Positions 1,321-35,214 of a DNA stretch of 64,000 nucleotides are shown here, in pieces. The stretch covers positions 1-64,000 of the forward strand of contig JALGPX010000027.1 in NCBI GenBank assembly GCA_023515795.1, given 5' to 3'. Below the pieces are notes generated by a model, which saw only the letters and a program-made list of their open reading frames with translations, was not told the origin of the DNA and made no database searches. Both the position numbers and the translations under genes were made by a program. How positions within the stretch are numbered: the first letter of the stretch is position 1; every line of letters begins with the position of its first letter. Source of the stretch: Amoeboaphelidium occidentale (lineage: Eukaryota).

Positions 1321-1839
1321 ATTGTGCAGTTTAGGAGCTGCTTCTTGTGATGGCTATCCTAGTAGAGGTTGAAATTCAATCACTCTCGAACAAAGTAAAA
1401 CACTAGACTTTTGATCTGTTCTCTATCAACATTCATTTCAAGGCAGAGTTGAATCTTAATTGTACATAAGAACGACGAGAAGTCTTGTCTCGATGAAACA
1501 CAGCAACCCGTCTGTCTTTGTATCCAAATGGTGGAATGATCGTGACAACTCTAGATTTCACTTTAGACGAGCAATGTCGTTAAAACTTGCCTTGTTTCTT
1601 TTATACCGTTAAGCGAAATATCGTGATAATATCTTAAGTTTATGCGACTGAAGGTGATCTGACTCGCGAGATAATCAATTTATTGAGCGATGAAGTACAA
1701 CGCCATTCCCTTTGAACCAAATTTAGTCAAGGTACTACAAAAAGGTTTCAATATCTGTAAGACACAACATTTCACTAGGCTCGAATGAACTGTTGATCTC
1801 TATGACTCCAAGAGTCTGTTTCATTTCTATAACTCTTAT

Positions 1840-2392
1840 CAACTTGTCATGATTGAACTTTAATGGTTCAAGATTCTTAAGTAAGAGCAAGTCTCTCACT
1901 TAGGAAAAGTCTTTACTGCCAAGCAAAAATAAAAGTAGTTTACGGGGAGGTTCTTTTTAACTACTGTTCTTTCCCTTCACCCTCTGTGATCCAAATGATC
2001 AAATAGAGGTACCGTATCATACTACTACTATTCGATAGTTATTTATTTCAGCTACTCAAAGAGTAAGATCTGTCTTTTTTCTATCACCCTTATCCTAAGT
2101 AAAGGACGCGTTAGTGCACAACACAGTTGGGAGTGATTTTCGATATTTTACACTCTCCTCCAACGAGGTTCCAATCTGTGTCTTCACAGTCGTTGAGCTG
2201 GACGATGACTGAGGTAAAGCTGGAGGTGTTTAACGGTTGTTACAAGAAGTTTTTTACTCGGACAACTTAAGTTTTTTACTCCAGACCCGATATACTGGCC
2301 AGATCAAACATCTGGTTTCTGTGTTCGCAGCCTGTTGGAATTGTTACTTATGTACAAGCATATTTATTCAATAAACAACCTTACGCCCCTAA
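1840..2392 (+). mobile_element. Copy 1 of a structured element ending in CCCTAA; probable 5'-truncated 3' end of a telomere-targeting retroelement
   Basis: Colinear similarity to 10585-11147, with shared blocks acggggaggtt, gaggtaccgt, ctgtgtcttcacagt, ctgaggt, tactccag, gtgttcgcagc, tgttggaattg, tatttattcaata and tacgcccctaa. The retroelement identity is inferred. Confidence 0.55.
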
Positions 2393-2494
2393 TTGGTAAA
2401 TAATTTATGAACAGATTGCTTTCAGTTTTCGAGAAAAATCAAAGCTGTGTCGCAATGGTAAAGAATGTGCATGCAATCCGTCTCATCTAAACAA

Positions 2495-3754
2495 TTATTG
2501 TCTCAATTTCATTGCTGCATAAGAAACGGTAAGCTCTTCAACAGCGTCAGGTTCTGCTCGGTTATTATTTTTTTCCAAGAACTTTCTAAACACTGGTATA
2601 AGGTAACTGTGGCTTACCCATTTGAAGTACCATTCAATAGATTCTTTCTCTTCAACACTAAAATTTACTCCATTAGGGAAGAAAACTTTAAGCACATCAT
2701 CGTCAAACATGGACAGTGTAATTCTGGGGTTAAAGGGGATCCTTCGCCTCCATTTACTATCGCTAAACACATGAGTCCACGTAAGCACCATTTTAAAAAC
2801 ATGAGCAATCTCTTGAAAGTCGTAGCGGAATCCATCCCGGAACTCTAACCTTGCGCAGGCTGCAATAAGCGACCACAAAACAATATTCTTTAGATCATTT
2901 TTTCTGTGCTCAGAGAAAAAGTCCAACATGTGCTTCCAAATTATCCACCAATCGGTTTTATACTCCGTAGACCAGTAAACAATGTTATCCAATGATTTTC
3001 CCAGCGCTTCAATATCTGTCACACGAGTCAGAACCAAATCAAGGAAATAAAACCCCTTTTCGATAGACATGACGGCCTTCGCGATGTAACGCATTACTTT
3101 TGCAGCCAGAAGAGGGCTGCAGAATTTTAAAGACTTTTCGTAGTGCATAGATTTTAAAAAGTCTAATATGTCGATATAAGGCTGGAAATCAAAGTTGTCG
3201 TTATAGTCCCATGTATTTTTTAACAATTTGCTACACCATGTATGAAATAATTCGTCCTCTAAAGAATGCCAAAACCTTGGTTTCATCAAATCAGGTAGTC
3301 CTTGCTTAAACTCCTCTATGTGTTTGTTCAAGAATTTGATCGTTTCTGGGTTTGAAAATATATCGCCTTGAAAAATTCGCCGCCAAAAAGATAGGAAACA
3401 AAGTCCGGCTCCCTCTTGTGCACAACTTGAGGTCATTTCGCCCTGTTTCCAATTGAACCACCAATCGGACCAAACCTTCACTCTAAAATATGCCGCAAAT
3501 TCTTTTTCGTCTTCCAATAGACGCTTCCAAGTTTTCTCCCAATTATCAAACTCCGACTTATGCTTAAGAAGATAAATTATACAATCATCTTGTACAAAAT
3601 TTTTCAGCCATAAAATTTCAAACGTGGTGCCTTTTAGCATGGCAGAAATAGCCGAAGAAGTATCCTTAAAACACTGCACATCCTACTCGTCAAGAAATGA
3701 ACCAATTATTTGTATAATTCCTGGTGGAAGGTCAAGAAGATTTTTTCGAGTCAT
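2495..3754 (-). pseudogene. F-box protein pseudogene 2 (N-terminal F-box plus helical body)
   Basis: ATG at 3754 gives MTRKNLLDLPPGIIQIIGSFLDE*DVQCFKDTSSAI, an F-box motif with an in-frame TAG at 3683-3685, in frame with the 394-aa ORF. Confidence 0.65.
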
Positions 3755-3849
3755 CAAGAAGAATTTTAAAGATCATTCTGTATGTGCTGACTCACTGCAT
3801 TCAGCTAAGGTGAAAGCAGGAATAAATTTTCATGATCTTTCTTTTTATA

Positions 3850-5152
3850 ATTCTAAGCGTGCCGTCGGTATCACAAAATGTATTCAGTTGGGCCTCCTCG
3901 AGATTATTTCTGCCACTTCTGGTAAGGTTTATCTCTCAAGTTTTAAAAGCTCTTCATTGTTGTAAAGTTCATCACTCGATAATAAAAACCGCTCACAAGA
4001 CCCTTAAAAATCATTTGAGCATTTCATTAAAATCTCTTTTTTCGAGAAGATAAAGGCAGTGTTTATCCAAGTAAAGCCATTCTTCGCAATATTTTTTGTG
4101 ATTGTTTCGTCCACAAGGCATAAGACAAAAATGCAATCATACGTAAGTAAATGTTTCCTCTCTAAACCTGGGATGAATGATCTCCATTTATGGGAAGACT
4201 TCAAAATATCTAAATATATCTCAATAGATTCTTCTTTAATCACAATTTCAGAGAAATTCTTGAGAAACCAAGGCATAAAACAGTCATAAAATCTCAATAC
4301 TTGTATCTTCGTTTGCCGATTATCTCTTTCAGTAAAGCGTTGTATAATTTAGCAATAGTAAAGACTGTTTAAGGTGTTGTATTTTCAATTTGCCTGCCAA
4401 TGATTCCAAGTCTTGCACTATCGTGTAAATGTGATATAAAGTAATTGAGGCGCTGAAGAACTTCGTCACAATCAATTACAACCGTGGAAACATTTCTAAA
4501 CATGAAGATAACCATTTTATACACTACTTCTTCATGAATACGTAAATAACTGTTCTTTTTCGCGAACTCCAATACTTCTAGCCAGCTTTTTAACTCTTCT
4601 ACATTCTAAAATGAATAGCAACTCATACTCAAAAAATGTATAAAATCACAGGACAAAAGATCCTCAAAAGAGTGCTATTAATTTGTTTTTGCTAAGTCTA
4701 GATTATCCGCTCTTAGTTTGAAGATTTCTTTTTCTACATAGCCGATTGTGTTTGTTTCGCGAGTCTTAAAAAGTTTCCGGCAAAGCTCAGTAAATATTCT
4801 CCTCTGCTGTAAAACGGGCCGTTCTTTGTCGCATCCCGTCAAAGGATAATTGAAGATATCTTTTTCATAAAGATTATACTCCTTTTTCTCATAGAATCTC
4901 TGGGCAAATACATAGTTATCATCGTACAATCTCGAGATAAGCTCTTTCCAGCATGGAATCTGTTCGCGATGATAGTAAATCATCCTTATGGCGTTATAAT
5001 TATAGTATTTTTAAGTAATCATAATAGAACGAAATATCTGAGGTTATCGTGTTTATCACAGCGTTTGATTTCTGAAAGAGACACAGATAATCAAAGTCAA
5101 GATTCTGAGCAATAATTCGTATGATCTCCGGAGAAAGACTCAAGAGGGACAT
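3850..5152 (-). pseudogene. F-box protein pseudogene 1
   Basis: MSLLSLSPEIIRIIAQNLDFDYLCLFQKSN F-box motif, then a frameshift near 5005 into ...CWKELISRLY, several in-frame TAA/TAG stops (4675-4680, ~4607, 4369) and further frameshifts. The 3' end is approximate. Confidence 0.65.
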
Positions 5153-5220
5153 ATTCTGAAATGCTACTGGAAAGAAAAAGGTTTGAAATCGGTGAATCAT
5201 TGTTCTAATTGACCTTAATT

Positions 5221-8200
5221 TTAGTTCCATGGCATTCTTTGCTTAAGAAGTTCATAAATGACGCAAGCATATGAGTAGATATCGTATTTCTTGAAGTCCG
5301 CGCCAACATAGTTCTTTCTCCTGAAGTTCACAAATGATTCTGGCGCTGCGTAATGAACAGATAGACCACGAATGTTAATAACATTAAACGCCGTTGTCGC
5401 AATGATCTGGTCGGACAGTATCTGCGTGATTCCAAAATCAGTCAGGTAGCAAAAGAGAAGGTTTCCTTCGAGACGGATCAGAATATTTTGAGGCTTCAGA
5501 TCACAGTGAGCCAGGTAAAGACTGTGCATCACTTTCAATGCTTCGGAGATGTCCTTCATAGCCTTCAAAACAGCTCCCGATCCAAAACTATTCGCTTTTA
5601 TCCAGTCATGTAACGAGCCATCGGGATAATATTTTAGGATAATCGATAAAGGTTTCTCTGTGTAACCAACTATTGAGCAAAAATGAGGAAACGTGTTCAA
5701 CATAATCATGATTCCAACTTCTTGATAGAATGCGTCTTCTAATGACTTTGAGGTAGTTAAGATAATTTTCTGAACTACAACTTCTCCAAACTTTGCCCGA
5801 AGCGAAGCGTCCATTATCTTTGCAATATATAACTCGCCTCCTCCACCTTGAGTAATTTTTTTGACTTTGGCTATGAACGAAGCGTCAATCAAGTATGCAG
5901 CATGTTTTGATATTCCGATTACGGTATTAATGACAGTTTCTAGGTCAGAAATCATGTTGGTCTGACTCGCCTGTGAGCTTGCAATCAAAGAATCGGCCAT
6001 CCCCTTGTCTTTCGATCTGTTCAAAAGAAAGTAACATACAAGACTACCGGCAATCACTGCAGACAGAGCGATGATAATATATGTAATGATCAAGCCAATG
6101 CTGGAGTTAGTATTATCAAAAAGCAGCCTTTTTACCGCCTTCGTCCTTTTAGTAGCGGCATTTCGTAGGGTTGATTTAGTAACTAACCCAAACGAGAAGG
6201 GTTCTGAGGGAAGATTTGGGTTGAACACAAGAACCGAAAAATCTTCACTTCCAGCAAAAACAGAGTTGTTGTAGCATAGAACAGATGTTACAGGTTTTGA
6301 GAAGCCAAAATAAACATCTTCGTGTTTTCCTGTTGGAATGTTCCAACGTCGCACGGATAAGTCTGCACCAACGGAAAACAAAGTACCAGAACAAAAGGAG
6401 ACTGAATAAACACGACCTAAATGACCCAAAGCTGTAGCTGATATTCTTTTGTACACTTTAATTAAATTTCTTGTGTTCAAAGACCACTCAATGATCGTTT
6501 TGTCATCAGAAGTGGAGAAGAAGTGCTCATTAACAACCAACAGACTATTTACCTGAGAAACATGACCTTTTAGCTGAAAATACGGACGTTTGGTATCCAA
6601 ACTCCAAGTGTAAACAGCTCCCGATCTGGATCCTGCAATAATTTCATACTCTGTGACGGCAACACATGTTAAAGGAGCTTGTGAATCTGCGATTTTTGTC
6701 GGGATAAATTCATCATTCCAGGAAATAGAAATCAAAGTGCTTTCATCCTCGATAGCCACTAGAAAAATACTATTCAAAGCAAATCCTCTTATAGTTCCTG
6801 ATCTCGATTTCTGCAAAAGAGAGAAATCTTCTGTATTGTTGAGGGAAAACTCCATAATCAATCCATCAAGTCCAGAAGAAATTATGGAATCCTCGGTGAC
6901 TTGCAAAGTTGTCACATCCTTTTCATGCGCATTCAAAGTCTTCGTGAGTAGTGCAGATTCAATATTATAGATCAAAATCGTTCCTCTCCGTACTCCGACG
7001 AAGAGAAGATTTCCGTGGGCAGCCAATGTTGTCACAGAACTGTTTCTGTCCTCAAACGAAAAGGCTATCTTTCTGGTGGCTAAATTCCATTTCTTGATAG
7101 AACCATCGAAACCTGTTGAGTACATTACAAATAACTCATCAAAACATATAGAGTAGATAATGTCTAGATGGCCCTGATATGTTTCAAGAATTTGAAGTGT
7201 CGTGGGGTCTCTTGATCTGATTATGCTATCCGAATGCCCAGAAACAACACGATTCCTATTTGCAGTAATACAGAGGCAGGATATCGGCTCTAGATATTAA
7301 TCATGCAAAGTGAAAGCTTACCTCTAAGATAACCTATTTTTTCTTGAGATTCAACCGAGAATGCCTCCAAACCGCCACCAGTACATGAGATGATTGAATT
7401 TTGTTTTATCAGAATCGCAAAGACGTTATACAAAGCTGAGAGTTTAACGGATACAAAAAAACTTACTGTTGAAAACACCAATACTATCCTGAGTGGTGAC
7501 CTTCCAAGCTCGAATTGATTTATCGTTCGATCCAGAGTATAAAGTCTCCTCATTTAGAAAAACGGATTCCACAAAACTGGTATGTCCTTCAAAAACCATA
7601 TTTTGACTGCCAGAAACGATGTCCCATTGATAAATTGTTTCTTCATAACCACCAGCGTACAAGAATAATTGATCTGCTGCAATGCTTAGTATTGCACTCT
7701 TTGGACCTAAACGTCAATATCAAATGAATCTAGTACAGTACCTGTATACTTTCGGACAAACTGGAAATTGGGAAGCTCCCACTGATCTGCTGTTAAATCA
7801 GCACTTCCAGAGAAAAGACTGTTATTATACACAAAAAGACAACTTATTGGCCGAGATGCATTTGCAATTGTTGTTATGGGGTTCACACTGTCAAACGAAG
7901 CATCCCACATTCTGATTTCAGCATCTTCGCCTCCACTAATGACAAAGTTTGTCCAAGTAACAACTGCTCTGTTTTTCCTGCTGCGTCCAGAGTAAGTGAA
8001 CAACGGCTCTCCTGTGACTATATCCCATCTTATAGCAGTAGTATCAAAGGATCCCGAGAATAGTTCTCGCCCCACAACTGTAAGACTTTTTATGGCATTG
8101 TTATGAACATCAGGAAAACGGGTAAGTATCTGACCATTACTTATATTCCACTTCAAAATTCCTCGTTGTGCTCCTGCAGAATAAAGTTCTTCTCCGACAA

Positions 8201-8969
8201 CTAGAACCGCATAGATTCCGCCTTCGTGTCCTATGAAAATTCTGATTATGTCACCAGTGTTCACATTCCAGTAGATAATTGTAGCATCAGCAGAGCCAGA
8301 GAAGAGCATATATTGGTAAACATCGATTGCAACCACAGTATTTGTGTGCCCAACAAACGATAAATCAATTTCGCCAGTTGTAGCGACAAGTTTCAAAGCA
8401 TGTGGCGAATTTTGCTTTCCAATGTACAAGAAGTCTCCTCTTGCTACAATGCTTGAAATTTTACCATTGATATCTTTATCAAGTAAATGATCGATAAAAG
8501 CAGTGTGGTTACCTATTCGTTGGACAATTCGTCCCGAGACTAAGTCGACTTGCCTCACATTTGTATCTTCACCAGCGGTAAATAATTGATCATCTCGCAC
8601 AGAAATGCTTTGGACATAAGTACCTGATGATCTCAACCAGATCCTCTTCAAGATCGAGCCATAGTCTAGACTCCAAACGATGATCATATCATCATAGGCG
8701 GACGTTATCATTCTGGAATCATTAGTTACCACAAATGAGTTAACTATGTTCTCATGCGCTCTAAATGTTCTTTGTACCATTCCAGTTGAGATATCTTTCT
8801 GAATAATATCGTTTGAAGCTGTCAAGAGTAGCGAATCCTTGTAGACCACAACTGTATACACATTAGAAGCTCCATCTGGTAGAAGAAAGCTTTTATCATG
8901 CTCAAGGCCCAGGACCATGCATCCAAAGATAGCAGCCAACAGACATGTAAGTAGGTCGATAAGATTCAT
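5221..8969 (-). CDS. WD40-ectodomain receptor-like kinase A (~1203 aa; SP-WD40xn-TM-non-RD kinase)
   Basis: Signal peptide MNLIDLLTCLLAAIFGCMVLG, many GH..WD units, TM IGLIITYIIIALSAVIAGSLVCYFLL, and kinase motifs GGGG/VQK/FYQE/HCDLKPQN/DFG/APE. GT-AG introns at 8474-8512, 7707-7741, 7436-7466 and 7290-7321 give a 3612-nt CDS. Confidence 0.9.
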
Positions 8970-9241
8970 AACAAAGTTGTAAAGTTGAAACAAGAGCTGT
9001 TTGGCCGCAATCCGTTTAAAAGTTCGCCGAGGCCATCGCATCAACACAAAATAAATAAACCGTGTATTTAATTCAAAGTGCTTTGATGATCAGTACAAGT
9101 GGCTTACCGCGTCTGAGCTTTATCAAGAGGTTTTGGTAACGAAATGGGACAGACGAGTAGATCTCACTGATAAAGTTCGTCATATAAAGATACTAAAATT
9201 TATTCACTAACTCATAAAACATTCAGTTTAAACAGAGCTGA

Positions 9242-9761
9242 TTAACGGTGAGTCCAAACCCAGCCGTTAGTTGAAGCTTTTCTTGCCAAAATACTGTACT
9301 TGCCTTCCTTGTCTGGACACTTTTCCATGACTTCTCTTCCTGGAGGCACAGGTCTTCCTTCTAGCTTTCTCAAGCGCTCAAAGAAATCATAGGCACAATA
9401 ATAAACTTCGCTCTTAGCACCCTGGTATCCACCTTTATTTTCCAACAAGTTCATGAGAGCACGTGGAGTGAATCTTAATTCTTTCGCGAACGCAGTTCTA
9501 GTTGTAACATTTAGATGCTTGTGCAGAAAATCAAAAATCAATTTACGAACATCATCGCAGTTTAAATAAAACATCATTTGACTCTCGTCATATAATTCAT
9601 CCTCTGGCCAACTTGGTTCCTGAGCAGCAATCTGATCCAATAACTTTGTATAAGCAGCCTTTGCAGCAGGATCATTCTTTTTTTGGTTGTGCCGTTGAGG
9701 ATGAACCATTGCCACTCTCAACAGGACCACCAAGCGACGACTTTAAATTCTTCTTTGCCAT
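9242..9761 (-). CDS. DUF7726-like protein of unknown function, with an apparent 1-nt frameshift near the 5' end
   Basis: Motif series YLNCDDVRKLI..T.TAFAKEL..LLENKG..GAKSEVYYCAYDFFERLR.LEG.P. A natural-looking start MAKKNLKSS at 9761 joins the ORF only through an indel in an A7 run (9678-9684). Confidence 0.55.
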
Positions 9762-10584
9762 CTACCAACGCATGAAGAACGGAGCACCTTTTTCATACAC
9801 GCCATTCTCAACACCCCGCTTTGCACCGCGATAAGACATGAAACGACCGTATGAATTAGAATTGACACTAAGAAATGTTGGAGGTTCATTCAAAAATCTC
9901 TCATGGTGATACTAATAAATAAGTCAAGGAATCCTCTATTGAACCCGCGAGGCGACGAATCTGATATTTTACCGAGAGTTACACGAAGATCTGCTGAACG
10001 GGTATAAAAGACCAGCAGCTTAAATAATTTACTAAATAACCTGAGAATTATGTTGAAGATAATAAGATTTAACTGTTTCTGGGTCCCGTATCACTATTGT
10101 CGCAATGCAATTGGTTGTTATATTGTGTAATTAAAGTTTCAATTACTGGACATATTCCAGCAGGATGATCGCGTATTGGCGTTCATGGAAGATGCTGCCT
10201 TGTTTGAACCGTTATCGATGGTTGATCTTGCGGCATCATCTTCTTAAATCAGTGAAGTAACAGTTGTGAGAGGTCTGAACCGTTTGGGTACATGAAGGAT
10301 TGTACATCAGATCAAGGTTGACAACTTCTTTTAGATAAGCTTGAACCTTGTGCTTGACGACTAGTTGATAATAGAAACCTTTAACAGTATTAAGAACTAT
10401 TAAAGTCAGTTTGAGGACTAGCATCTTAACTTTTGAGAGCTGAAACACCTCCCAAAGTATACTGTCCTAGACCAAGCGCTTAATGACGGTGATTATAGTC
10501 TTTTTGACAACGCTGTGAGCGGTCTCGGATGGGTCAGCGACTTAACAGACCCAGAGGAAGAGCATGAAGAACTTTTTGATCCTC

Positions 10585-11147
10585 AATTACTTGTTACGCC
10601 AGAACTTCAAGAAGTTTTAGATTCTGAAATAAGCGACAACCCTTATTTAGAAGACACTTTACTCTGAAATGAAGACAACAGAGTAGCTCACGGGGAGGTT
10701 TCATCAACTACAGATCTTTCCCTCCATCCTCCATGATCCAACTGATCGGACGAGGTACCGTGATACACTGCTCAACCATAGTGTTTTAGTGCGGTGGTCT
10801 CAAGAGATACACCGATTTTTCACTATACCCTTTAATCCTCAATGGACGCCAATGTGGCACCACACAGATAGGGGAGTTTTTCGATATTTATCTCCCTCCT
10901 CCAATCGAGGTTCTATACTGTGTCTTCACAGTAGTCGCGCTGGACGGTTACTGAGGTGAAGCTGTGAGAGGTTTACAGTTGTCTAAAGCGATCTATAGGA
11001 CGCATTCAATTTGGTTTTTACTCCAGGACTGATATGGTGAACCGGACCAAAGGACGGCCATCGTGTTCGCAGCAATGTTGGAATTGGCACTTATTCATAA
11101 TGTATATTTATTCAATAGACAACTATACGCCCCTAAACCCTAACCCT
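10585..11147 (+). mobile_element. Copy 2 of the structured element, ending CCCTAAACCCTAACCCT
   Basis: Homologous to 1840-2392. It is preceded by a decayed plus-strand frame ending ...NPYLEDTLL* at 10667, and terminates in telomeric C-strand repeats at 11131-11147. Confidence 0.6.
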
Positions 11148-12256
11148 TTCACGATGTTTGTGCATCTAATCTCATGGTACACCTCCATTGTCGCTCATTC
11201 AGGCTGTTCTAAGCGATGAAACTCTTAAGAACCACTTGATTGACTTGTTTCAACGTCTTTCAACGCGTTTGAGGCATCATCACAGATGCAAGGATAGTCT
11301 AAGCCTCCTGCCGTTTTGCGCCATGCGTTAAAACTTGCTCAAATTAGAATGATTTTGAGATGGTATGCTTTCGATTCTATTTAACCGTGTGTCTCCATTA
11401 TCGGTATCCAATTTTACACTCTTTGACCTTCTGCGTATAATTATAGCTTTCAACTTTCTCTTAACTATGACGGTCATGTTGAGTGCTTTATCGAACTTTA
11501 ATGTTTGTTTCAGCTTCATTAGTCTGATCTTTTGTGTAAACCGTAAATCATAGTTTGGCTGAGGTTGTGAAACTATTCAGAATAGAAGAGATTCTCAGCG
11601 AAATCCCATGAACAGTTGCTGGCTAGATATTATTCAATTCGCCGGAAGTACTAATGTGATATCGGCACCCGATAAAGAGTTATTCTTTTAATGCTACGAT
11701 TCCGGCATATAATTTCAATCCAGTTCGGACCAGTCAGGACTTGGTTTTGATTATTAATCTCCCACTTCCTAGAAGAGCCTCGATCAAGCCTTTATCTAAA
11801 TATTCGACTTTAAGAATCCGCGTGAAAAGAGAAGTATATGAGAATACTGTCTAAAGATAATGAAACTATGGCATTCTTGCTCGTTTTAATCTAGAACAAG
11901 GATTGAAAAACGGCAACTACATGCTCATCAATTGTATTAAGCATAAAAACGTCAAAAGAGACCAGAACAGATGTATTTTGAGTCAAATCAATGGTAGTAG
12001 TGGTCTGTGGTGTATCTGAGTCAATTATAATGATATATGACATTATTTAATATATAATGACTAATTTTTGTTTTCTGACGGGAAGAAAACCAACTTTTAC
12101 AACCAAAGTTTTCATGTCATATCCAACAGGTTCTCGCTAAGATATAGTTGCAGGCTCTTCATTAACATGTGAGAAATAAACCCTATTTACTTCTTTGAGG
12201 TATAAATACGGAGCCACATCCATTTTATTGTAATTAAACCACCGAATAACATCTTT

Positions 12257-15200
12257 CTAGTCCCATGGCGATCGTTTAGCCAAGACTTCAAACATAATGC
12301 AAGATAGAGAGTAGATATCATACTTCTTGAAATCAGCTCTACCAAACTTTTTTGACCTAAAGTTTTCGAAAGCTTCTGGTGAGGCGTAATGAACAGAGAG
12401 ACCCCTCAGATTGATCACATGGAACGACTTTGTTGCAATGATCTTCTCAGAAAGAACTTGTGTTATTCCAAAGTCAGTCATGAAACATGTTGGAACACCC
12501 CTTTCAATCTGCACTAAAACATTTTGACTCTTTATATCGCAGTGAGCCAAATAATGGGAATGCATTGTGTTCAGAGCTGAAGATATTTCTCTCAAGATTT
12601 TGACAGTTGTTCTCAAGCTTAAGTGATTCTTACGCAACCATTCATTCAAGGAACCATCGGGATAGTATGCCAATATCATGGACAGAGGGTTTTCTGTGTA
12701 TCCGAGTATTTTGCAAAAGTTTGGAAACGTAGACAGCATGATCATGATTCCGACTTCTTGATAAAATGCATCTTCAAAGGGCTTACTCTTTGCAAATATA
12801 ACCTTTTGTACAACAATATCTCCCAATTTTGCTCTTAAAGCGGCATCCATGGTCTTGGCAAGATAAATTTCTCCTCCGCCGCCTGCTGCCAACTTCTTGA
12901 TCTTTGCAATGTATGAGCTGTCTATGAGATAAGCGGCGTGCATTGAGATTCCCATGACACTGTTGATAATGGTTTCCAAGTCAGTGACTGTCTGACTTGA
13001 ATCAGTTTTATGAGCAAAAACTGCTGGCGATGACTTATCACCGCTCCTTTTCTTTCTGCTAAAAAAGAACAAGGTCACGCAACATGAAATCAAAATTGCG
13101 ACTGAAACAGTGATGTATATGATCGCTTGACGATTCTGCATCAACGATTCTGTTGACAGAAAGCTGGCACGTATCACTGTCCTTCTTTGCCTTTGACCCA
13201 ACTTAGATGTTGTTAAAGTACCACGAGAAACAATGTTTACGTCTTTGAGGTCGGTTTTGAACAAAAATACAGTAGAATCTTCACTCCCTGTCAGAACTGA
13301 ATCATTATAGCAAAGAACGGATGTAACTGGTTTGAAATGACCGACCATTATGTCTTGGTGTCTTCCTGTCTCTATGTTCCATCTACGCGTAACCAGATCT
13401 GAACCTCCAGAAAACAGAGCCCCTCTACAAATTGCCAAAGAATTAACAGGGCCCAGATGACCAAGGTTAAAATTCGAGGTTCTTTGGAACGCTCTCACAA
13501 ATTGTCTCCCAGGAAGCGACCATTGCATAATTGTCATATCTTCTGATGCAGAGAATAACATGTCATTATAAGCAATCAAATGATTAACCTGGAACGTGTG
13601 TTTGTTCAAAACAAAAGCCAAAGTGTATGTCCTAAGATCCCAAGCAAAAATATTTCCGGATTTTGATCCTGAAATAATAAGGGCCTCGGTAGCAGTAAGG
13701 GTTTTTAACGGCTCAGATGCGTAAATTGTGTTTTGTGATGTCAAGTTTCCGTCTCGAGGCCAAATTACAACTTCAGTATCCCTAGTCAGCGAAATCAAAC
13801 TATTGGAAGCCAACGTGAGGCTTTGAAGCGGAGATGCTGAATCAAACAGAACTCTAGAATTCATGATTTCATTTCCTGCAAACCTTAACAACTTGCCGTC
13901 CATTCCAGAAGAAAAGACAATATCGTCCTTGATGGCTATGGAAGAAACAGCACCACGATGTAAATCAATAGTGCCAAATAGAGTCGTGTCATTTAAATTG
14001 AAGCATCTGATATCACCAACCATCGTACCGACAAGAAGAAAGCTTTTGTGAAGCGCAAGTGTAGTTACTGAACTATTTCGGTCTTCGAAGGAGAAAGCCA
14101 CTGTTCGAGATGCCATATTCCATTTCTTGATAACACCGTCATAACTGCATGAGAACAAAATAAAGTTTTCATCGAAGGCTATCGAATGTACACCATCTTC
14201 ATGACCTGAATACGTCTCCAAGATTTCCAGAGTTGCGGAATCTCTGGATCTGATCTGATGATTGACATGACCGCTAAACAAGCGAGTTCCTCTTATAGCC
14301 ACGCAATTGCACCCAGCGCTTTCTGCACAATTAAAGAAAAGCTTAATGAGAAATACCTCCTCGATTTACAACCGTCGCACCTGTAAATACATCGAACATG
14401 GCTATTCCGCGGCTTGTTCCGACAACCAAGAAATTTTCAAACGTTACCGTTGAGAAGATGAGATCGATTGCTAAACTTTAGATCATAACAAATCAGGTAC
14501 CGTCAACTGATCGTACAAACTGAAGATCATCTTTAGACCAAAGCTGTACGATCCCATCCTCTGATCCGGAAAAAATAAAGTCGTTATTATGTTTGATCTC
14601 AACGATGGTGCCTTGATGGACACCGAATCTTGCTGCAATAACACCGGTTGATATATTCCAGCTCACAAGGATTCCATCATATCCGCCAGAGTAAAGAACA
14701 CCATCAGTAAATAGAAGCGCACGTATGGTATCTAGATTACCTAAACCTTAAGCCGTATTAAAGACAAACGCTTACTTCTAAAAATCATTGTACAGATCAA
14801 TTGTGTCAGGTTCCATTGTCGGATTGTTTGGTCACTGCTTCCCGAGAACAACAGGTTTTCGTGAAGATGTAAACTTTCTATCTCTGAAACATGATCAGTT
14901 AGAACGGCGTATGGGAGATAATTGTTCGAGGAAATATCCAAGAGCCGAATAGTGGATTCTTCTCCGCTGCTAATCATTGTGTTTTTCCACAAAACGGAAT
15001 TTAATGTTCTTTTTAAGCGGCTCCTATATGTAAAGTCCGGGAAATGGCCTGTCAAAGGCGTTCGTTTGATAACTGTATCGCTTGAACCAGAAAAAAGCGT
15101 ATCAGAATTCACTGCCAAACTAATTACAATATCAAGATGAGAAGGCAGAAATATTTTCCACTTAAGCCCATTTTCAGTTCTCCAGGAGTAAATATTTTTA

Positions 15201-15967
15201 TCTGTACCAGCAACGAATAGAATGTCATTCGCCACCAGCATAAAGTAAGCAAATCCAAAGTAATCTAAGTACCGAGTAATAATTTCACCAGTGTCTACGT
15301 TCCAGGAAAAAATATTTTTGTCAGTTGAAGCAGAATACAATGAGTTTTTGTAGAACTCCAATGCGTTGATTGCACCGGTATGGCCATCAAAGTTCATATC
15401 CAGCAACATGTTTGAGGTTCGATATTTCTCTAATTGTCTTGTCCTGGAAGCTTTCCCAACATACAGAAAGTTCCTATTCACAATAACCTTTTGAACTTCA
15501 ACTCCCAGAGCAATTGTTCTAGCTGTGCTTGCTCCAGAGAGATCAATTTTTCTTAGCTTCTGATCTGTTCCACCAGCAAAGACAAAATCATTCTGGTAAG
15601 AAATACTTATGATCGCATTCGAAGAAGTTTCAAGTTTAATTCTTCTGATCACAGAGCCAGTCTTTACGTTCCACACAATCAAGGTGCAATCCAGTGAGAC
15701 AGTGATCATTCTGTCATCGTTGGTCAACAGAATTGAAGTCACAATCGACGAATGCGCTCTAAAGTTTCTTTGAACAGCACCTGTAGCAATATCTTTCTGA
15801 ACAATATCATTTGCTGATGTCAGCAACAAAGAGTTTTGGTACAGTGCGATGTAGAACGCAGAGGCAGCAGTTTCTTTCAGCAAGAAGCTCTTTTCATGTT
15901 CAAGACCAAAGGGAGTGAGAGACAGAAGTGTGGTGAATAGACAAATGGTCCAGGGTAAAAGATTCAT
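12257..15967 (-). CDS. WD40-ectodomain receptor-like kinase B (~1203 aa)
   Basis: SP MNLLPWTICLFTTLLSLTPFG followed by LEHEKSF, WD40 repeats, TM AIIYITVSVAILISCCVTLFFF, and HCDIKSQN/DFG/SPE. Introns at 14741-14775, 14471-14500 and 14323-14356 give a 3612-nt CDS. Confidence 0.9.
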
Positions 15968-16547
15968 GTCAGCAGGTTGAATATGAAACAAGAGTAGCAA
16001 TAGCCTTGTTTGATGCTGTCTCGGAGCAATGTTCAAACTAACCATCACGAGTTTGCCAGCAATAATATTGTTGATTTTATCGCGCAGAGCTCCAGCTCAA
16101 GCGTCTACATGCTGCGAGCTGGAGTGCGAATGGGCTTTCTTAAAGGGGGTATATCTAGCTCGCTCTGAACCCTGCAATCTTATGTTCCTTCTGTTTACAT
16201 GAGTTGAAACAGACAAAGTTTTGGGTGCTTAAAGTCTGTAATTTAGATTGCTTAACTGTTTGGAACAGGGACATTAACGCTGTACGAAATATCAGACACG
16301 TTTTCTTGGATTTGAATGCAAATGGTGGTAAAAGGCCTCTTGCGTTCTCCAGGAAGAATCGTGCATGATGTTTCGTCAGCTAACTGCAAATTTAATTGGT
16401 GGAGAAAGGTGATTATGCTTCCACAGTCTCCGCCAGCGTAGCCGAGAAATCGGCGATTCGTGTAACGCTCTTCTAAGTAAGATTTGGTTTTATTTGAAAT
16501 AATCCTGTAGCGAAGGGCCAGTTATTATAAAGAAGTACAAATAACGT

Positions 16548-19500
16548 TTAGCTCCATGGAGTTTTCTTTGCGAGTACTTCAAAAGCAACACAACCAAGCG
16601 AGTAGAGATCATGCGCCTTGTAATTGACCCTTCCGTGCGATTTTGAAGCGAAATATTTAAACGACTCTGGTGCAGCGTAGTATATAGATAAACCTCTCAG
16701 GTTAACGACATTGAACAACTTGGAAGCCAAAACTCGATCAGATAAAACTTGAGTAATACCAAAATCTGTCAAGAAGCAGGAAAGTACTCCATTAGAGTTC
16801 TTTACCAAAACATTCTGCGTTTTCAAGTCACAATGAGCCAAGTGATGATTGTGCATGGTCTCTATAGCTTTTGCGATTTCTTTTAAACATTTTAAACCAT
16901 TAGGAGTGCTAACTTGTTTCGACCTAAGCCATTCATAAAGTGATCCATCGGCATAGTACTTAAGAACAATCGAAAGCGGTTTCTCAGTATACCCGATAAT
17001 CTGACAGAAATGAGAAAATGTCGATAGCATAATCATTATTCCGACTTCTTGATAGAAAGCGTCTTGTGCGCTTTTGCTTTTGACGAAGACAACCTTTTGT
17101 ATTACCAACAAACCCGCTTTCTTGGCTAACAGTGGATCCATAATTTTAACCAGAAAAAGCTCACCTCCACCGCCAGTTGCGATTTTCTTAACCGTCGCCA
17201 ATACGGAACCGTCAAGAAGAAACGCTGCATGCTTAGAAATTCCCATTATAGAATTGACAACAGTATCCAAGTCAGTGAAAGTCGTGCTGCTATATTTCTC
17301 TGATGTTAAAGCGGTTGGGCTTGATGACCCTGATATTCTGATTCTGAAGAACAGGCAGCCAAAAAGGATCAAAATAATAACAAATGCAGTCCCTGCAAGA
17401 GCTACAACTAAACCAATACTCACAGTGAAATTTGCAACTGACACTTGTTTGACTTTAATAACTTTTTTTCTGATGTTACCGTCGGTACCAATGAGTGTTC
17501 TAGTTAAGCTGTAAGAATTGGATTGTTCCGGAAGAAAAGGCTTGAAAGACAGGACGCTAAAGTCTTCACTTCCTGCATAAACAGAGCCATTGTAGCAAAC
17601 GACTGCGGTGAAAGGTTTTGAGGCGCCAAAGTAGACGTCTTCATGATTACCAGAAGTTGGGTTCCATCTTCGAATAGTTCTATCAGCACCAGCAGAGAAA
17701 AGAACATCTTGACACATTGATAGTGAATTAACTGGACCTAAGTGCCCAAGAGCCGTTGATGAATATCGCTTGAATACTTTGACTGATTCTCTGTCTTTCA
17801 ATGACCATTTTACAATTGTATTATCATCTGATGCAGAAAAAACTCCATCGTTTTCAGCTAAAATCATATTGACCTCCGCATTGTGTCCGTCAAGTTGAAA
17901 ATCAAACTCAAGCGAGACGAGGCTCCAGACAATTATTTTGCCTGTTTTAGAACCAGCCATTAGGTACACGTCATTGGAGGTAATGCAAGACAAAGGTTCA
18001 ACTGCAGAGACGCTTTTGACAATTTCATATGTGAACAAATTGATAATTTCAATTACTTCTTTGCCATTCAAAACAAACAAACTATTATTGCGAATTGCTA
18101 AATCTAGTAATGGATGATTAGCAGAAACTAACGGACTAGAAATCTGAATATTATTTTGAAGCTCTGACCGAAAGAGCATTCCATCAGAGCCAGTTGAATA
18201 AATCCAATCCCTTTCAACAAGCAGTCTTGAAACTGTCTTGTTGTGGATTTGACTGGACGATATTACTCTCGATGTCGACATGTCAAAAACATTAATGATC
18301 CCATCTCGTTGACCCACAAAAAGTGTTTTCCCTAAAGATATCATTGAAGTAACAGAGCTTCTCCTATTCTCAAAAGAATATGCTGTTCTTCTGGTTGCCA
18401 TGTTCCATTTGATTATAGAACCGTCAAAACTTGCGGAAAATAAGATTTCTTTTTCGTCATAAAAAAGGGAATATACGACATTAGAATGCCCCCTAAAAAT
18501 CTCTATCGTACTTAAATAGTTTAGATCTCTTGCTCTAATCAGACCATCTAAATGCCCACTGTAAACGCGAGAGGAACCTGCTGCTAAGCAAAGGCAGATG
18601 TAATCCTCTCTAATATCAGCGATGGTTGAGCCACTATATGTTGAAAACAGTTGGAGTCCTACTTGTGAGCAAGAAACAAGTGAGTCTTCTCGAAGCAGTA
18701 GAGCTGCAGTTGATTCCGGAACTAGAATGTTAATGCTTTCTGCTGAAGAAAAAACCGTCATAGAAACGTGTCAGTTGCGCTGAAGATTTTGACCATTGAA
18801 GAATTGCAAGATCATCGGAACCAGAAAAAACGAAATCTCGAGATGCTACAAGGGCGTTGATCCGATACTGCGCACCTTCAAATGTCCCAACTTGTTCTCC
18901 TGACGTGATGATCCATTGCCTAATGATCAGGTCTGGACCTCCCGAGTAAAGGAAATCATCACTAGCCACTAAAGCAGTTACAATATTTGTGTGCCCTAAA
19001 ATTCAGTCAGGCTAATGAACGATGATGAAAATACCGCTTAATGCTCTAATTCTTGTGACATCTGTCAAATTCCATTGAGCTATCGTGGTATCAGAGCTGG
19101 AAGAAAAGAGGTAATCTTGATGAACCAGAAGGTTAGTAATAGAACTTTGATGACCGAGGAGTACTCTAACAGGTTCTAAGCTGTTAATTGAAACATCCCA
19201 AATTCGGATTTCTGAATCATCACTGCCGCTCATAGCGTAGCTTTTCCAAACAACCACAGATCTGAGTTTTGTATTAATACCTTTGAAAGACTTCATCGGC
19301 AGACCGGATGATATGTTCCACTGAAGCACAGTGGTATCATCCGATCCGGAGAAAAGAGCTTGTCCTCCGAACCACAAGCATTGAATCCTATTCGAATGTG
19401 ATTTTGAAAACACTTTCATGATCTGCCCATCATTGATGTTCCACTTGATAATTCTTAGATCCCAGCCACCAGAATAGAGTTCACCCTCATGATCGATAAT

Positions 19501-20260
19501 TGCAAGCACACTCAAAGAATGGCCTTGATATCTTTTCATGATTTCGCCAGTATCAGTGTTCCAGCTTATAATATCCATTACACTACATGATGCCAATAGA
19601 ATGTTACCAATTAAGTGCATAGCAGTAACAGAGCTTTCACAACCGCCAAACGCCATAATTTGTCTAAATGATGAAGTTGCGATCTTTTCCAATGGAGCGA
19701 CTGAAGCCCATTTCCCTACGTATACACTATCGCCACTTACTAAAATCTTTGAAACTCTAACGGAAAAATCTATAGAATTTAACCCAAGTTATTTGTAAAA
19801 TACCTCTTGACCTAACAACCCTTCCTGTAACCAAGTCTAAATGCCTGATTTTGCCATCGTCACCTCCTGAGTAAACTTGGCCACCTTGTAAAGATAATCC
19901 TTTGACCAAAGTACCCGTTGATCCCAACCAGATCCGCTTTAGGATCGCACCTGATTCCAAACTCCAAACGATAATCATATCATCCGACGCTGATGTTATC
20001 ATTCTGGAGTCATTTGTGACTACAAATGCCGAGATCAAATTTGTATGAGCCCTGAAAGTCCTCTGTATTGCACCTGTTTCAATGTCTTTCTCAACAATGT
20101 CGTTGGAAGATGTCAAGAGTAAGGATTCCCTATGCACACTGATCGAGTAAACTACAGCAGCAGCATCATGTACTAAGAAACTCTTCTCATGATCGAGCAA
20201 AGAGGATAGATGTAGCATCGTAGCTATCAGCAGCCATATTCCTAAGTCTGCATGAAACAT
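16548..20260 (-). CDS. WD40-ectodomain receptor-like kinase C (~1201 aa)
   Basis: SP MFHADLGIWLLIATMLHLSS followed by LDHEKSF, WD40 repeats, TM IGLVVALAGTAFVIILILFGCLFF, and HCDLKTQN/DFG/APE. Introns at 19770-19803, 18996-19034 and 18722-18755 give a 3606-nt CDS. Confidence 0.9.
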
Positions 20261-20587: not shown

Positions 20588-23362
20588 TTACAAGATTGGT
20601 ACACCATAGACTTTGAAATCATCAATTCTTCCATACAACATCGTATTAGTTCCCGAGTTAATAGCGCCAACGTAGAAATCATTATTGCCAGGATTAATTC
20701 CAGTTGCTATACGTTAAACAAGAAAGCTTCAAAATTTACCTGATATTGTTGTCTGCGCAACTACTACACAATTCCAAGCCAATTTAATCGTGGTTCCGGT
20801 CGTTGTCGGTGTATAAGAAGCAGTGATACGAACCCACTGGTCCAAGTAACAATCATCCGGAATATTGTAACTGATAGTTGTAATTGGTCTTGTTCCACTT
20901 GCAGACTTAATACTAAAGGACAATGTATTCTTGACAAATCTCAAATAAACTTGGTCATTTCCAGTCCATTTTGTGAATAATGCATCTTCTGCTGTAATAC
21001 CATATCTCATCACAAGCATATCGACTCCAAAACCGTTGGTGAATTGGAATGTCCCAGATCCTGGAACAGTAAAGAATGTATCTACGTCATTGAAATTCAG
21101 AGCAGTTCCAGTGAAACCAGAAACCAAACCACTCTTGAAGTTGATATTTCCTGATAACGAAGAACCCATCAAATTGGGAATTTTACCAAGAGCGTAAGCT
21201 GCTGCATCATTGAAGTCATATGAAATTATTGGAGCTGCTGCTGGAGTTGTTGTTAGAGCAAGACATGGACTAGATTTTGAACAAGGGCAGTTTGGACAAG
21301 CAGGTACTGTTGGACCGATATTAACTTGGAAGACCCCAACGTCATTTTTGATAGATACAGCAATAACTGAACCATAAATAACACCACTTGGATTATTCAA
21401 AACAGCATTTGGAGCAAATAAACCACCTCTTATACCGACATTCACCGCATTTACAACTGTAGCATCACAAGTCAACCATTCAACAGGAATATTAGCCAGG
21501 GCCTCCATGTCCATTCCGGAAAAGCTAACTGTTGCGCCACCAATCATAATTACAATTAACTTGTGGAAAGACGGTTTGTAATTCACAAGAGGTGAAATAG
21601 ACTTAACATAAGCCCAATCTGCCGGGTCGATAACAACAATCTCAATCGGATTAACGCCAGTTAGAGTAATAGTCAAGACACCACTGTAAGCTCCTGAGAT
21701 TGAATAGAAAGTTCCTGTTGGAGGGTACGATTTGAATAAGGCACACGTACCTTTCAATTTAACAAATACATTGGCAAAATCAAGGTATTTCGGAATAACT
21801 TTTACGGAACAAGATGGATTCAAAATACCACTGTTAATAGTACTCCCTGTTGCTCCAACAACAATATCACCATTATAATTATTTCCGCTTCCCCAAGTAA
21901 TGGTTTTGCCTGCCACAACATCAACAACAGAACACGGTGGATTAATACCAAGTTTATCCCCTACAGAAAATCCGTTGCCAAGCTTAACAGTCCCGCCTGC
22001 AGCAAGAGCTCCTTCAATGTCTCCTGTACCAGCAGTGTAATCACCAAAAAGGAACACGGAATAATTTAATGCAGGACCCTTGTCTATACATGGAGTTAGA
22101 TCAGTTGGTGGATAAACAGGCAATGTCTTGTTCATTGAAAAGCAAATGCCTGGGCAAGGTGGCAACGCTGGACTGACATTAATTTGAACGGAACCATTCA
22201 TGAAATGAGCGTAAACATTGCCAACAATCAAACCACTAGTATTAATAATATCAGCATCAGGAGCCAAGATGTTTCCATTCACTTGAATATCTTTTATCGT
22301 CATCAAAGTTGCATCGCATGCTAGCCAAACAACGTTATAACCCAAAAGAGCTGTCATTTCAACAGAAATAAAATCAACTTTTGTGCCACGTAGCTTAAAT
22401 ACAATAGTTTGAGGTGATGAACTAGGTATTAAAGAGATGGTGTCGATTGTCTTGACCAGCAACCAATCTGAGGGAGAAATATCAACTATTTGTACAGGAT
22501 CATTCGTAAAGAACTTCACTTGCAAAAGACCACCAGACGCAATAGAATAGGAAGTTGTAGCAGGCAATGAAAAGAATTGTGAACATGTGCTACGTAGACA
22601 ATTTCTGGCTTGAACAAAATCCAAGTAATCAGGGTCGTACACAATTTGGCAGCCAGGATCAATTCCTGTATAACGAGGATACGGCAACTTTTGGACAATA
22701 GCACTACCACCAAACGTTCTACCGTATTCCCAGCCAGAGATTTTTCCGCCAAAGACAATATCAAATACGGGTGCAGTTGGAGAGCATGGAGGAGTGATAC
22801 CAAGTTTGAAACCAACTGAAAAGTATGACATCAAATAAGCATCACCTCCAATTGCAACAGAACCTTCAACATCCGGACCACTGTAGTAATCTCCACTCAA
22901 AAACAAGTTGAACTCTCCAACATCACCAAAGCCAATACATGTTGGAACAGGTGTGCTGGTTGTTGTCGTAATTGCAGTAGTTGTGGTTACTTGAGTACTT
23001 GTTGTAATTGCCGTGGTGGTGGTCACTTGGGTACTTGTTGTAATTGTGGATGTAGTTGTGGGATCTGTACATGTATAACTGGTTAATGTGGTGAAAACGG
23101 TTGAAGTCGTAGGGCAGATAGTTGTAACAGTCGTTGTAACAGTTCCGGTGACAAAAACAGTTGATCTTGAAGAAGGAGTTGGGATAGCCTCTGGAGAATC
23201 CGGAGCAACAGTGGTAAAAAGCGCTGCGGATGTTTCATGTGGGCCAGCATGTCTTCTTTCTCTTTGAGTCAAATTATCACCAAAAGAGCCTTCATAATTC
23301 AAATAGAGCTGAAATAAAACCAAAACAGCTGCAACAAGAAAGGCTTGAGACACTAAAGACAT
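20588..23362 (-). CDS. Secreted/surface protein: Thr-rich linker, two choice-of-anchor-A (ice-binding-like) domains, C-terminal LamG-like domain
   Basis: Hydrophobic N-terminus and TTSTQVTTTTAI repeats. Two domains carry the F(N/S)xFxxGD..D(V/I)EG..A.GG..FSVG and G..(L/F)AP.A motifs. Intron 20707-20739 completes a LamG-type end, FYVGA..LYGRIDDFKVY. Confidence 0.75.
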
Positions 23363-31754: not shown

Positions 31755-32312
31755 ATGGATCCAATACCTCCAGATTTTCTACAATTACTTTTATCGTGTA
31801 ATAACAATAATAAAGACCTCCACTTCAAGTTGACTCTATTGAATACAACCATAAAAGAATTCAAAGATAAAAACACAAAGAAAGCAATACAATTATGTTC
31901 AGAAGTATTGTTGGGATTACAACAAATACAAGGACCTTCTTCCTTCTTCCTAAAAGATTTGATTTCAGTTAGTGGAGTAGAGTTTAATGACGCGAGAATA
32001 TTGTTGGAAGCATCTCTGCATCTTTACATTGCAAAACTTTATTCTTGCAGCAGCAGTAATCCATCATCAAAAGAATCGCATCTATTGCAGTGTCAGCAGC
32101 TGCTGCTACTACTACTACTACGAAAAAGCAATACTACTACTACTACTATTACTACTACTACTACTACTACTACTTCTGAAGAATCTTTATTAAAACAACA
32201 ACAACTTCGTAAAGAACTTCGTAAAGAATGCATTATGGAATTGGCTCAAGTTTATAAACTAAAAGGAAATGAACATTTATACAATCTTACAATGCGCCAA
32301 TTATTACAATAA
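31755..32312 (+). CDS. Hypothetical helical protein with poly-T/L/Q tracts
   Basis: 185-aa ORF with an ATG start, lying between neighbouring genes; no family recognised. Confidence 0.5.
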   Translation: MDPIPPDFLQLLLSCNNNNKDLHFKLTLLNTTIKEFKDKNTKKAIQLCSEVLLGLQQIQGPSSFFLKDLISVSGVEFNDARILLEASLHLYIAKLYSCSSSNPSSKESHLLQCQQLLLLLLLRKSNTTTTTITTTTTTTTSEESLLKQQQLRKELRKECIMELAQVYKLKGNEHLYNLTMRQLLQ

Positions 32313-32425
32313 TACTTGATAATATTTTGAAGAAGAATTGAATTTTAACCTCTTGAATGGTAACTTAGAGTCTAATTGTTGTTTGAAATAAATAACGTAT
32401 TCTCCTCCTGCCACCACTGAATCTC

Positions 32426-32462
<37 letters not shown>

Positions 32463-32982
32463 CGTTAGTTGTTCCAATAACTCTAATATACTCTTTACAT
32501 TCAACAATACACTACTCCCTTCTGTTTCTACACTTATTTGNCTTGAATGGTAACTTAGAGTCTAATTGTTGTTTGAAATAAATAACGTATTCTCCTCCTG
32601 CTACCACTGAATCTCTTGTTGTTGTTGTTGTCGTTAGTTGTTCCAATAACTCTAATATACTCTTTACATTCAACAATACACTACTCCCTTCTGTTTCTAC
32701 ACTTATTTGATACTCTTGACCATCATTAACATATCCTTCTTTATATTTACATTTAAAAACAGTAGCACCAACAAAGGGACAAGTAGCAATTAGTCTAGCA
32801 GCTTGATTGGATTGTAACTGGAGTAATTGTTTTCGAATGTACTCAATAACTACATCTCTTTCAATAGAACTCTCTATAGACCCTGATAATCCTAATCCTG
32901 ATAACCCTAATAATAATTTCCTTCTAATATAATCCTCACATTGTAACAACACCACTCCCATCACTTCTGCTGATTCATCAGA

Positions 32983-33027
<45 letters not shown>

Positions 33028-33320
33028 GAACAATACTTTAAAATCCTTTTGTACATAATAGAAGCGGGAAGTAGAAGTAGAAACCAAATCTTCAAACGAT
33101 TCATTTAAATTCTTAGCAGCAGTTCCAGTTCCAGTTCCAGTTCCAGTTGTTGTCGAATCATAGTAATACTCTCTTTTGTTCTGAAGTGTTTGAACCAATT
33201 GAGATAGAATACTCCTACTTGTTCCTTTACTAACAATTCTTAATTCTTCAACAAAAACCAAATCCAATAATTTCAAGAATTTCAAATCACCAAGAAGGAA
33301 TAGATGATCCTTGTAAGATA

Positions 33321-33353
<33 letters not shown>

Positions 33354-33476
33354 GTTTCTTCTTTTGATTCAAAGGATTGAATACATCTAATGAAACAACA
33401 TTAGAACTAGTCTTTGTAACAATATTCTTCTTTTTAAATAATGAATCCAATTTCATCCTCTTATAATTATTATTAT

Positions 33477-33512
<36 letters not shown>

Positions 33513-33644
33513 GCATAGACTGAGGTATTGAATCATCTTCTTCACTTTCAATCTGTAAATCTTCTTCAGTCTTATTGAGTATATCCCAATTACTCTTAAC
33601 TTCAGTATTAGAAGAAGAAGAAGTAAATGTATTAAACTTCTTTA

Positions 33645-33676
<32 letters not shown>

Positions 33677-34872: not shown

Positions 34873-34900
34873 TCTTTTTCTTTTTACAGAAATAACAGAA

Positions 34901-35183: not shown

Positions 35184-35214
<31 letters not shown>

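Follow-up and report, generated by a model that had tools for sequence, protein, structure and literature searches.

Diverged copies of a putative LINE-type 3′ untranslated region, probably structured and with a telomere-like end, in Amoeboaphelidium occidentale

The window considered here, that is, the whole 64,000-nucleotide (nt) stretch at positions 1 to 64,000 of contig JALGPX010000027.1 of Amoeboaphelidium occidentale, is gene-dense eukaryotic DNA with HSP90, Munc13-like MUN/C2 and WD40-kinase genes, in which a non-coding block occurs twice in the same orientation. The two copies, 1934-2392 and 10682-11136 (both on the + strand), align by blastn with 72.3% identity across 470 columns (E 1e-50), and their last 11 nt are identical. 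A first-pass annotation, made from the letters alone, had described 1932-2392 and 10680-11147 as substantially diverged non-coding copies of a structured RNA. The repeat is real and so is its divergence, and with stop codons in every one of the six frames of either copy the block was rejected as coding sequence, but homology between the copies stops at 11136 and the end given at 11147 takes in a telomere-like tail. The same annotation missed three features, the tail of an open reading frame (ORF) upstream, the abundance of the copies and their CCCTAA end, with which the block is very probably to be read as the 3′ untranslated region (UTR) of a long interspersed nuclear element (LINE).

Upstream of copy 2, the + strand carries the last 76 codons of this ORF (10437-10664), closed by a TGA stop at 10665-10667. 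The conserved block begins 14 nt past the stop, and the 3′ UTR of copy 2 spans 10668-11136, of which 10682-11124 is the conserved part predicted to be structured by alignment and consensus folding. Over its 76 residues, the tail matches the C-terminal end of P0010, which stops at the same residue, with 100% identity, and P0017 with 76%; since family homology ceases at 10437 (junction about 10436/10437), copy 2 begins inside the ORF and is 5′-truncated. When 1.84 billion proteins were scanned by HMMER for the frame upstream of copy 2, four matched. Two cover just the last ~80 query residues; these and the other members of their clusters comprise partial hypothetical proteins from the annotation of A. 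occidentale, mostly on short contigs, and JGI/IMG proteins, while the other two (P0005 and P0006) were discarded as chance matches to repeat proteins. We also discarded 10017-10664 as one decayed ORF with eight stops, because the family match is confined to 10437-10664. Overlapping family proteins, chained by identities of 77% (P0010-P0017), 73% (P0017-P0011) and 93% (P0017-P0013), reach about 320 residues further upstream and carry YKYVG, FKTFALPxPMYG and C-x2-C-x7-H-x2-C, which we read, in that order, as reverse transcriptase (RT) motif 7 (the final RT motif), the thumb, and the knuckle at the C-terminus of ORFs from retrotransposons without long terminal repeats (non-LTR). The knuckle (CCHC) is found in six of the eight family proteins scanned, the other two ending before its position. 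With these motifs, the gene ahead of the block is likely a non-LTR (LINE-type) retrotransposon ORF. An Atlas search with P0011 gave first matches of 0.96-0.97 to unnamed clusters and assigned 7 of 30 matches to a set in which 20% of the members carry RVT_1 (0.93), which is a lead only; with P0003 recognition was low and uninformative, and longer homologues of P0001 and P0008 were not found (weak negatives by the tool's own caveat). The RH[DN] and [RK][PA]D..[DE] motifs of the restriction enzyme-like (REL) nuclease, which follow the knuckle in MoTeR, FoTeR, SLACS and CRE (PMC12857005), occur in none of the eight family proteins. Because they are missing after the knuckle in all eight, the element would have either an N-terminal APE nuclease, as L1 does (PMC12503042), or no nuclease.

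The depth of public contigs aligned to 1500-11400, which by the tool's caveat is not a copy number, marks the block as an abundant repeat whose 3′ part is the most abundant. In contig set X1, which covers 0.91 of the sampled words and is possibly the window's own source, depth reaches 15,500-17,600 on the copy-1 bins (the top contig depth) and 8,500 on the main copy-2 bin versus 113.6 on flanking unique DNA, that is, 75-155 times the single-copy level. It is intermediate just upstream of each copy (about 3,900 in bin 1500-1830), dropping from the UTR toward the ORF side. In X2 and X3, which are metagenomes from other studies, depth also peaks over the copies (875-2034 and 140-160, respectively, versus about 9-14 on unique stretches), and X4 contains a relative at low depth. 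An X1 contig of depth 3637 links ORF-tail sequence (10534) to a copy-1-type start (1930), and therefore both RNA types follow this ORF family. Upstream of copy 1 itself lies a multi-copy stretch (1525-1933, +) with a presumed 5′ junction near 1525, where X1 has a loose end. Part of it (1653-1703) weakly resembles the family ORF (score 40 versus 27±3 for shuffled sequences, with a maximum of 32 among 12 shuffles), and the stretch may be an ORF tail in decay or else a non-autonomous derivative that has the 3′ end in common. Sequence 3′ of either copy is single-copy, unlike the multi-copy flank 5′ of copy 2. This 5′ flank, 10106-10436, just 5′ of the junction, has an X1 bin depth of about 930 versus 113, is also multi-copy in X2-X4 and has no match to the element ORF, being some repeat or gene family. 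Directly 3′ of copy 1 lies a 394-residue ORF (2495-3679, - strand) with no Pfam match, which is single-copy in X1 and has zero cover in X2-X4.

Both copies terminate in TACGCCCCTAA (2382-2392 and 11126-11136), with no poly(A) at either (longest A run 2-3 nt). Copy 2 runs on with ACCCTAACCC, giving a telomere-like CCCTAAA CCCTAA CCC at 11131-11146 (11126-11146 with the element end, + strand), and copy 1 does not, passing instead into unrelated sequence. Two X2 contigs, from a metagenome aligned at 80% likeness, jump backward after 2392 to 2334/2335 with an intervening CCTAAA or CCCTGA, a weak indication of head-to-tail 3′ ends split by a variant repeat. The case for a telomeric junction is built on the two window copies and these two contigs.

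The search for further copies that had been suggested (nhmmer --max, across the window) returned just these two and no third. Exact-pattern searches found none in viral or metagenome collections, and a looser pattern gave 17 loci in the viral collection, all of them chance by nhmmer (best E 0.046). Protein-based locus scans gave one of 59 candidates in metagenomes, a bacterial chance match, none of 36 in viruses and none of 49 in prokaryote genomes. Evidence from covariation is therefore limited to two full copies. The comparison with Rfam proposed in the first-pass annotation did not identify the RNA, as no family matches either copy: searched with the Rfam 15 covariance models, the window gives nothing at gathering score, and none of the five weak matches at E<=10 in region 1500-11600 overlaps either copy. 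Fanzor/TnpB omegaRNA, group I/II introns, RNase P/MRP and the dicistrovirus internal ribosome entry site were set aside for lack of Rfam support, and for a Fanzor/TnpB-type reading the upstream protein is, by eye, also without a RuvC-like C-terminus.

Most of the pairings first proposed for the block can be recovered from the alignment. TACGG 1941/CCGTA 2012, facing CACGG 10689/CCGTG 10758, contributes one compensatory pair; GAGTG/CACTC facing GGGAG/CTCCC (given earlier as GGGAGTG/CACTCTC and GGGGAG/CTCCCT) contributes two, and so does the long-range GGTTGTT 2235/AACAACC 2374 facing AGTTGTCTA 10977/TAGACAACT 11116. Others need qualification. CTGGA/TCCAG is present but invariant, hence silent on covariation, while GATAG/CTATC and ATAGTG/CACTAT both exist but share an invariant ATAG/CTAT core, which makes them a shifted helix rather than compensation. 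The CTGTG-TCTT-CACAG hairpin is indeed invariant, but it is probably the less favoured fold, since CTGTG can pair with an upstream ACACAG (ACACAG 2121/CTGTGT 2176) in a helix that runs on into TTGG/CCAA versus ATAG/CTAT, with two compensatory pairs, and that each copy adopts when folded alone. The reported lack of a hammerhead core holds: CTGANGA is found on neither strand of either copy and, with one mismatch allowed plus GAAA, there is none on the + strand of either.

Four parts can be told apart in the predicted fold. Domain I (1934-2029, +; 10682-10772 in copy 2) would be a multi-helix junction, P1-P5, with like folds in both copies alone (z -2.74 and -2.47) and one compensatory and two one-sided changes. 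Domain II (2034-2085, +; 10778-10826) is a predicted hairpin (z -0.92 and -3.16) with a U-rich internal loop that is interrupted by an A in copy 1 and partly paired in the minimum free energy (MFE) fold of copy 2. Domain III (2121-2211, +; 10862-10953), a predicted three-way junction (P10-P12) plus hairpin P13 with CTGGA in its loop, has near-identical folds in both copies (z -1.60 and -1.46) and five compensatory pairs. Finally, three mutually crossing long-range pairings were built by hand across 2198-2380 (+), namely CTGGA 2198/TCCAG 2280, GCTG 2219/CAGC 2328 and GGTTGTT 2235/AACAACC 2374. The first two are invariant, the third alone covaries and is present in both MFE folds, and together they suggest a compact tertiary fold. 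The complete hand-built model has 17 helices with 81 pairs (67 unchanged, 4 one-sided, 10 compensatory, none broken), after removal of an 18th helix, P7a, for wrong register (one compensatory and two broken pairs).

Judged by the ORF tail, the RT-like motifs, the depth and the TACGCCCCTAA end without poly(A), the window copies are very probably 5′-truncated remnants of a non-LTR retrotransposon, with the block as its 3′ UTR. This bears out the first of two interpretations offered earlier, a retroelement 3′ UTR recognition structure, for a block that follows a LINE-like ORF stop, is a high-depth repeat and has an end of telomere-associated type; the second, an unknown stand-alone ribozyme or non-coding RNA, finds no support as an account of the locus. 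The full reading, which we hold to be probable, is that the blocks, of ~470 nt, form the 3′ end of a LINE-type element, that their fold is likely bound by RT and that the CCCCUAA end likely primes on G-rich telomeric-type DNA. Mechanistically, (i) the ORF protein would bind its own RNA by the fold of the 3′ UTR, in the manner of R2 proteins, (ii) a 3′-OH on a TTAGGG-like strand, supplied by the nick of a putative N-terminal APE-type endonuclease, a chromosome end or a break, would anneal to the terminal CCCCUAA, (iii) target-primed reverse transcription would proceed from the 3′ end and often stop early, making the 3′ UTR the most abundant part and leaving relics, and (iv) purifying selection on the fold would preserve the helices while sequence drifts to 72% between subfamilies. 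A bolder version, which we think improbable, has a nuclease-less LINE-type element in an early-branching fungal relative, in which a 460-nt RNA with several pseudoknots holds the RT while CCCCUAA anneals to G-rich chromosome ends or breaks, with the addition of a template boundary (the repeated stop near 2334) or self-cutting. If true, a telomerase-RNA-like scaffold, or a new ribozyme, would have evolved inside a non-LTR retrotransposon.

Several results on the fold weigh against our reading, as do others on the protein and the 3′ end that follow below. Each full copy alone is ordinary in stability (z -0.77 and -1.19). RNAalifold finds 11 compensatory pairs versus 10.5±2.6 in the null, with 28 of 60 nulls reaching 11. 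When the fold of one copy is tested on the other, 12 of 42 and 13 of 26 changed pairs are still paired (P 0.80 and 0.07 on the + strand), which is not significant, and the hand-built model is circular by construction. Whole-copy MFE values, compensatory counts and the pair-level test would thus all suit the view that most pairings arose by chance and that conservation of the block is of its sequence only or reflects a recent subfamily split, and so would the indels: among those listed (12 of 47), ten fall on copy 1 and nine of these lie outside helix strands, but one in ten inside strands versus a share of 0.28 is not significant (P about 0.18, by hand), the remaining two being one upstream and one on copy 2 (10934) within P13. 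We nevertheless rate this view as unlikely. Against nulls in which the substitutions were redrawn but kept their positions, the + strand has a consensus folding energy of -71.9 versus about -59±4.8 (z -2.66 and -2.82), matched by 1/100 and 0/100 nulls (1/200), and four of four control runs on coding paralogues from the window are without such an excess. The - strand also scores, more weakly (z -1.9 and -2.4, reached by 3/60 and 0/60 nulls), a further point on the debit side. Both sides of a predicted pair change jointly about twice as often as independence predicts (13 versus 6.4 and 11 versus 3.8), with no excess in the coding controls, and domains I and III fold alike in each copy independently. 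Covariation is weaker evidence than first claimed, and at the level of single pairs it is not significant with two copies. Overall, support for structure conservation from two copies is moderate, a conserved fold in the block is likely, and we give the predicted fold good odds of being functional.

The remaining points concern the protein and the 3′ end. That the ORF protein is an RT is a lead, drawn from motifs and the Atlas match and covering the C-terminal part; no family protein matches Pfam, NCBIfam or the PDB, two AlphaFold models are unusable (predicted local distance difference test scores of 34 and 38) and Foldseek finds nothing for them at E<=0.001. At the 3′ end, copy 1 has one partial CCCTAA unit and no more, neither copy has a target-site duplication adjoining its junction, CCCTAAMCCCT reached two matches in 10 of 100 shuffles, and a TTAGGG-type host telomere is an assumption. 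The abundance could fit genome-wide dispersal with an element-encoded tail equally well. Short tandem tails arise by RT slippage in CR1/L2/RTE/I-type elements, and the same LINE 3′ UTR could carry its CCCTAA-like run as such a tail, with APE-driven insertion throughout the genome. The very high depth, hard to fit in a few chromosome ends, would suit this dispersal, as would the irregular repeats after the end (CCCTAAA, CCTAAA and CCCTGA), the want of an extra repeat at copy 1 and a protein with no REL domain, unlike fungal telomere-targeting elements. The missing target-site duplications, the common orientation of the copies and the combination of single-copy 3′ flanks with a multi-copy 5′ flank at copy 2, which is the pattern of 12 of 19 MoTeR relics, all speak for the other side, and we see dispersal as a possible but clearly less likely account, with telomeric-type priming modestly favoured over a slippage tail. 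Endonuclease-free Penelope-like elements of the Athena/Coprina/Terminon type, acting on G-rich overhangs and with the block in place of their hammerhead, would account for reverse-complement telomeric repeats after a 3′-terminal fold and for 5′-truncated head-to-tail chains (PMC6431247 and PMC8557442), which the X2 joints resemble. The + strand has no hammerhead core, however, and the protein, with its thumb-like motif and a CCHC knuckle at the C-terminus, suits a non-LTR ORF better than a Penelope-like RT; we hold this account to be very unlikely. Hardly more probable is a new self-cleaving or processing ribozyme, being or lying within the fold, that makes the non-polyadenylated 3′ end or splits tandem units. 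The long invariant single-stranded motifs, the three crossing pairings and the restart of two X2 contigs at 2334/2335, just 3′ of CAGC 2328-2331, would agree with it, but RT stalling at a helix explains the common restart equally well and, as noted above, no Rfam family overlaps either copy even at E<=10.

Returning to the LINE 3′ UTR with telomeric-type priming, the closest parallels are in fungi, MoTeR1/MoTeR2 in Magnaporthe and FoTeR in Fusarium. MoTeR relics are 3′ termini found at internal sites and carrying a telomere repeat, if only a partial one, and in 12 of 19 the 5′ flank is duplicated (10.1101/845669); FoTeR 3′ UTRs of 336-409 bp are followed by TAACCC repeats (PMC12857005). Like the putative element described here, these are fungal-lineage non-LTR elements with CCCTAA/TAACCC after the 3′ end (clear at copy 2, partial at copy 1), a similar 3′ UTR length, many 5′-truncated copies, internal relics and no clear target-site duplication, and the 3′-end anatomy of the window copies appears to match that of MoTeR relics. 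They differ in having a C-terminal REL nuclease (CCHC, then RHD/N, E, R/KPD or RAD), where the family protein ends after the knuckle, and in number, with 4-55 FoTeR copies per Fusarium genome versus a far higher depth here, although depth is not copy number; no folded 3′ UTR is described for either in the passages compared (10.1101/845669 and PMC12857005). In Bombyx, TRAS integrates into the (CCTAA)n strand, and the 3′ UTR of SART1, of stem-loop type and several hundred nt long, includes telomere-like sequence proposed to anneal to the target (PMC7265360). TRAS1/SART1 share telomeric-repeat targets with our element (putative in our case), and the orientation of TRAS matches that of the copies, but SART1 needs a long poly(A) tail, none being seen at the window copies, and both are elements of insect hosts with an N-terminal endonuclease.

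Two further comparisons concern the RNA. R2 proteins bind a pseudoknot-hinge-stem fold in 3′ UTRs of divergent sequence (10.1101/2024.11.11.623112), and R2 thus offers a folded 3′ UTR (210-292 nt) with divergent sequence, common architecture and a pseudoknot, bound by the RT protein while the 3′ tail pairs with the primer, which is what we propose here. Unlike our element, R2 targets 28S ribosomal DNA and has an RLE domain, and the fold of the block is longer (about 460 nt) with more predicted domains. Athena, Coprina and Terminon also end in a fold followed by reverse-complement telomeric repeats and form 5′-truncated chains; their fold is a hammerhead, and the protein here looks non-LTR rather than Penelope-like. 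Within the block, the U-rich internal loop of domain II resembles that of the ENE, a triple-helix stability element of transposon RNAs in the form of a stem-loop with a U-rich internal loop (PMC7583470 and PMC12501189), as in both copies it lies beside a G-C pair in a retroelement 3′ UTR; it may stabilise the RNA as a triple helix, which is a lead only. ENEs are reported mainly for LTR elements, however, and need a poly(A) or A-rich third strand, none being evident here.

Several other features of the window deserve mention. At 5221-20260 (- strand), genes for a WD40 propeller plus a protein kinase form a tandem family with some broken members; it represents a receptor-like kinase expansion, and both retroelement relics are in its region. 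Three of its kinase ORFs (ending at 5221, 12257 and 16548) all stop at position 198 of 263 of the Pkinase profile, which suggests a shared intron or a shared truncation, and the ORF at 7707-9047 has, by eye, a hydrophobic signal-peptide-like start. The DUF7726 gene at 9242-9840 (- strand), whose frame appears to extend upstream past an in-frame stop near 9765, has a close paralogue in contigs. Adjacent near-exact duplications of 100-360 nt (83-99% identical) occur at 42832-43098, 50535-50880, 57553-57775 and 32352-36329, and those of 98-99% that are 12-21 nt apart may be assembly joins, not real duplications. The low-GC stretch at 31755-39436 has strong skews and long low-complexity ORFs, weakly like 'New glue' repeats. 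The gene at 20729-23362 (- strand) encodes two putative adhesive domains of ice-binding-like type (PF20597) in one protein, and that at 48215-50242 (+ strand) a HutD plus AstE/AspA fusion; such domains are more typical of bacteria, and both genes were possibly acquired horizontally.

Folded 3′ UTRs that guide a LINE RT (R2, SART1) and telomere-ended fungal retrotransposons (MoTeR, FoTeR) are known already. What sets the present case apart is the combination, in an aphelid near the fungal root, of a telomere-like 3′ end without poly(A), no REL and a predicted multi-domain fold, unusually long at about 460 nt, across subfamilies of 72% identity. This combination did not turn up in searches of the open-access literature (subscription journals being outside coverage), which returned nothing on Amoeboaphelidium retrotransposons and, among titles on aphelid telomeres, none on the subject. 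One small genome contains many diverged copies, so that covariation can solve the fold directly. The element could reveal how, beyond R2 and telomerase, recognition of RNA by the RT is coupled with telomeric priming, a question that also matters for gene-insertion tools templated by RNA.

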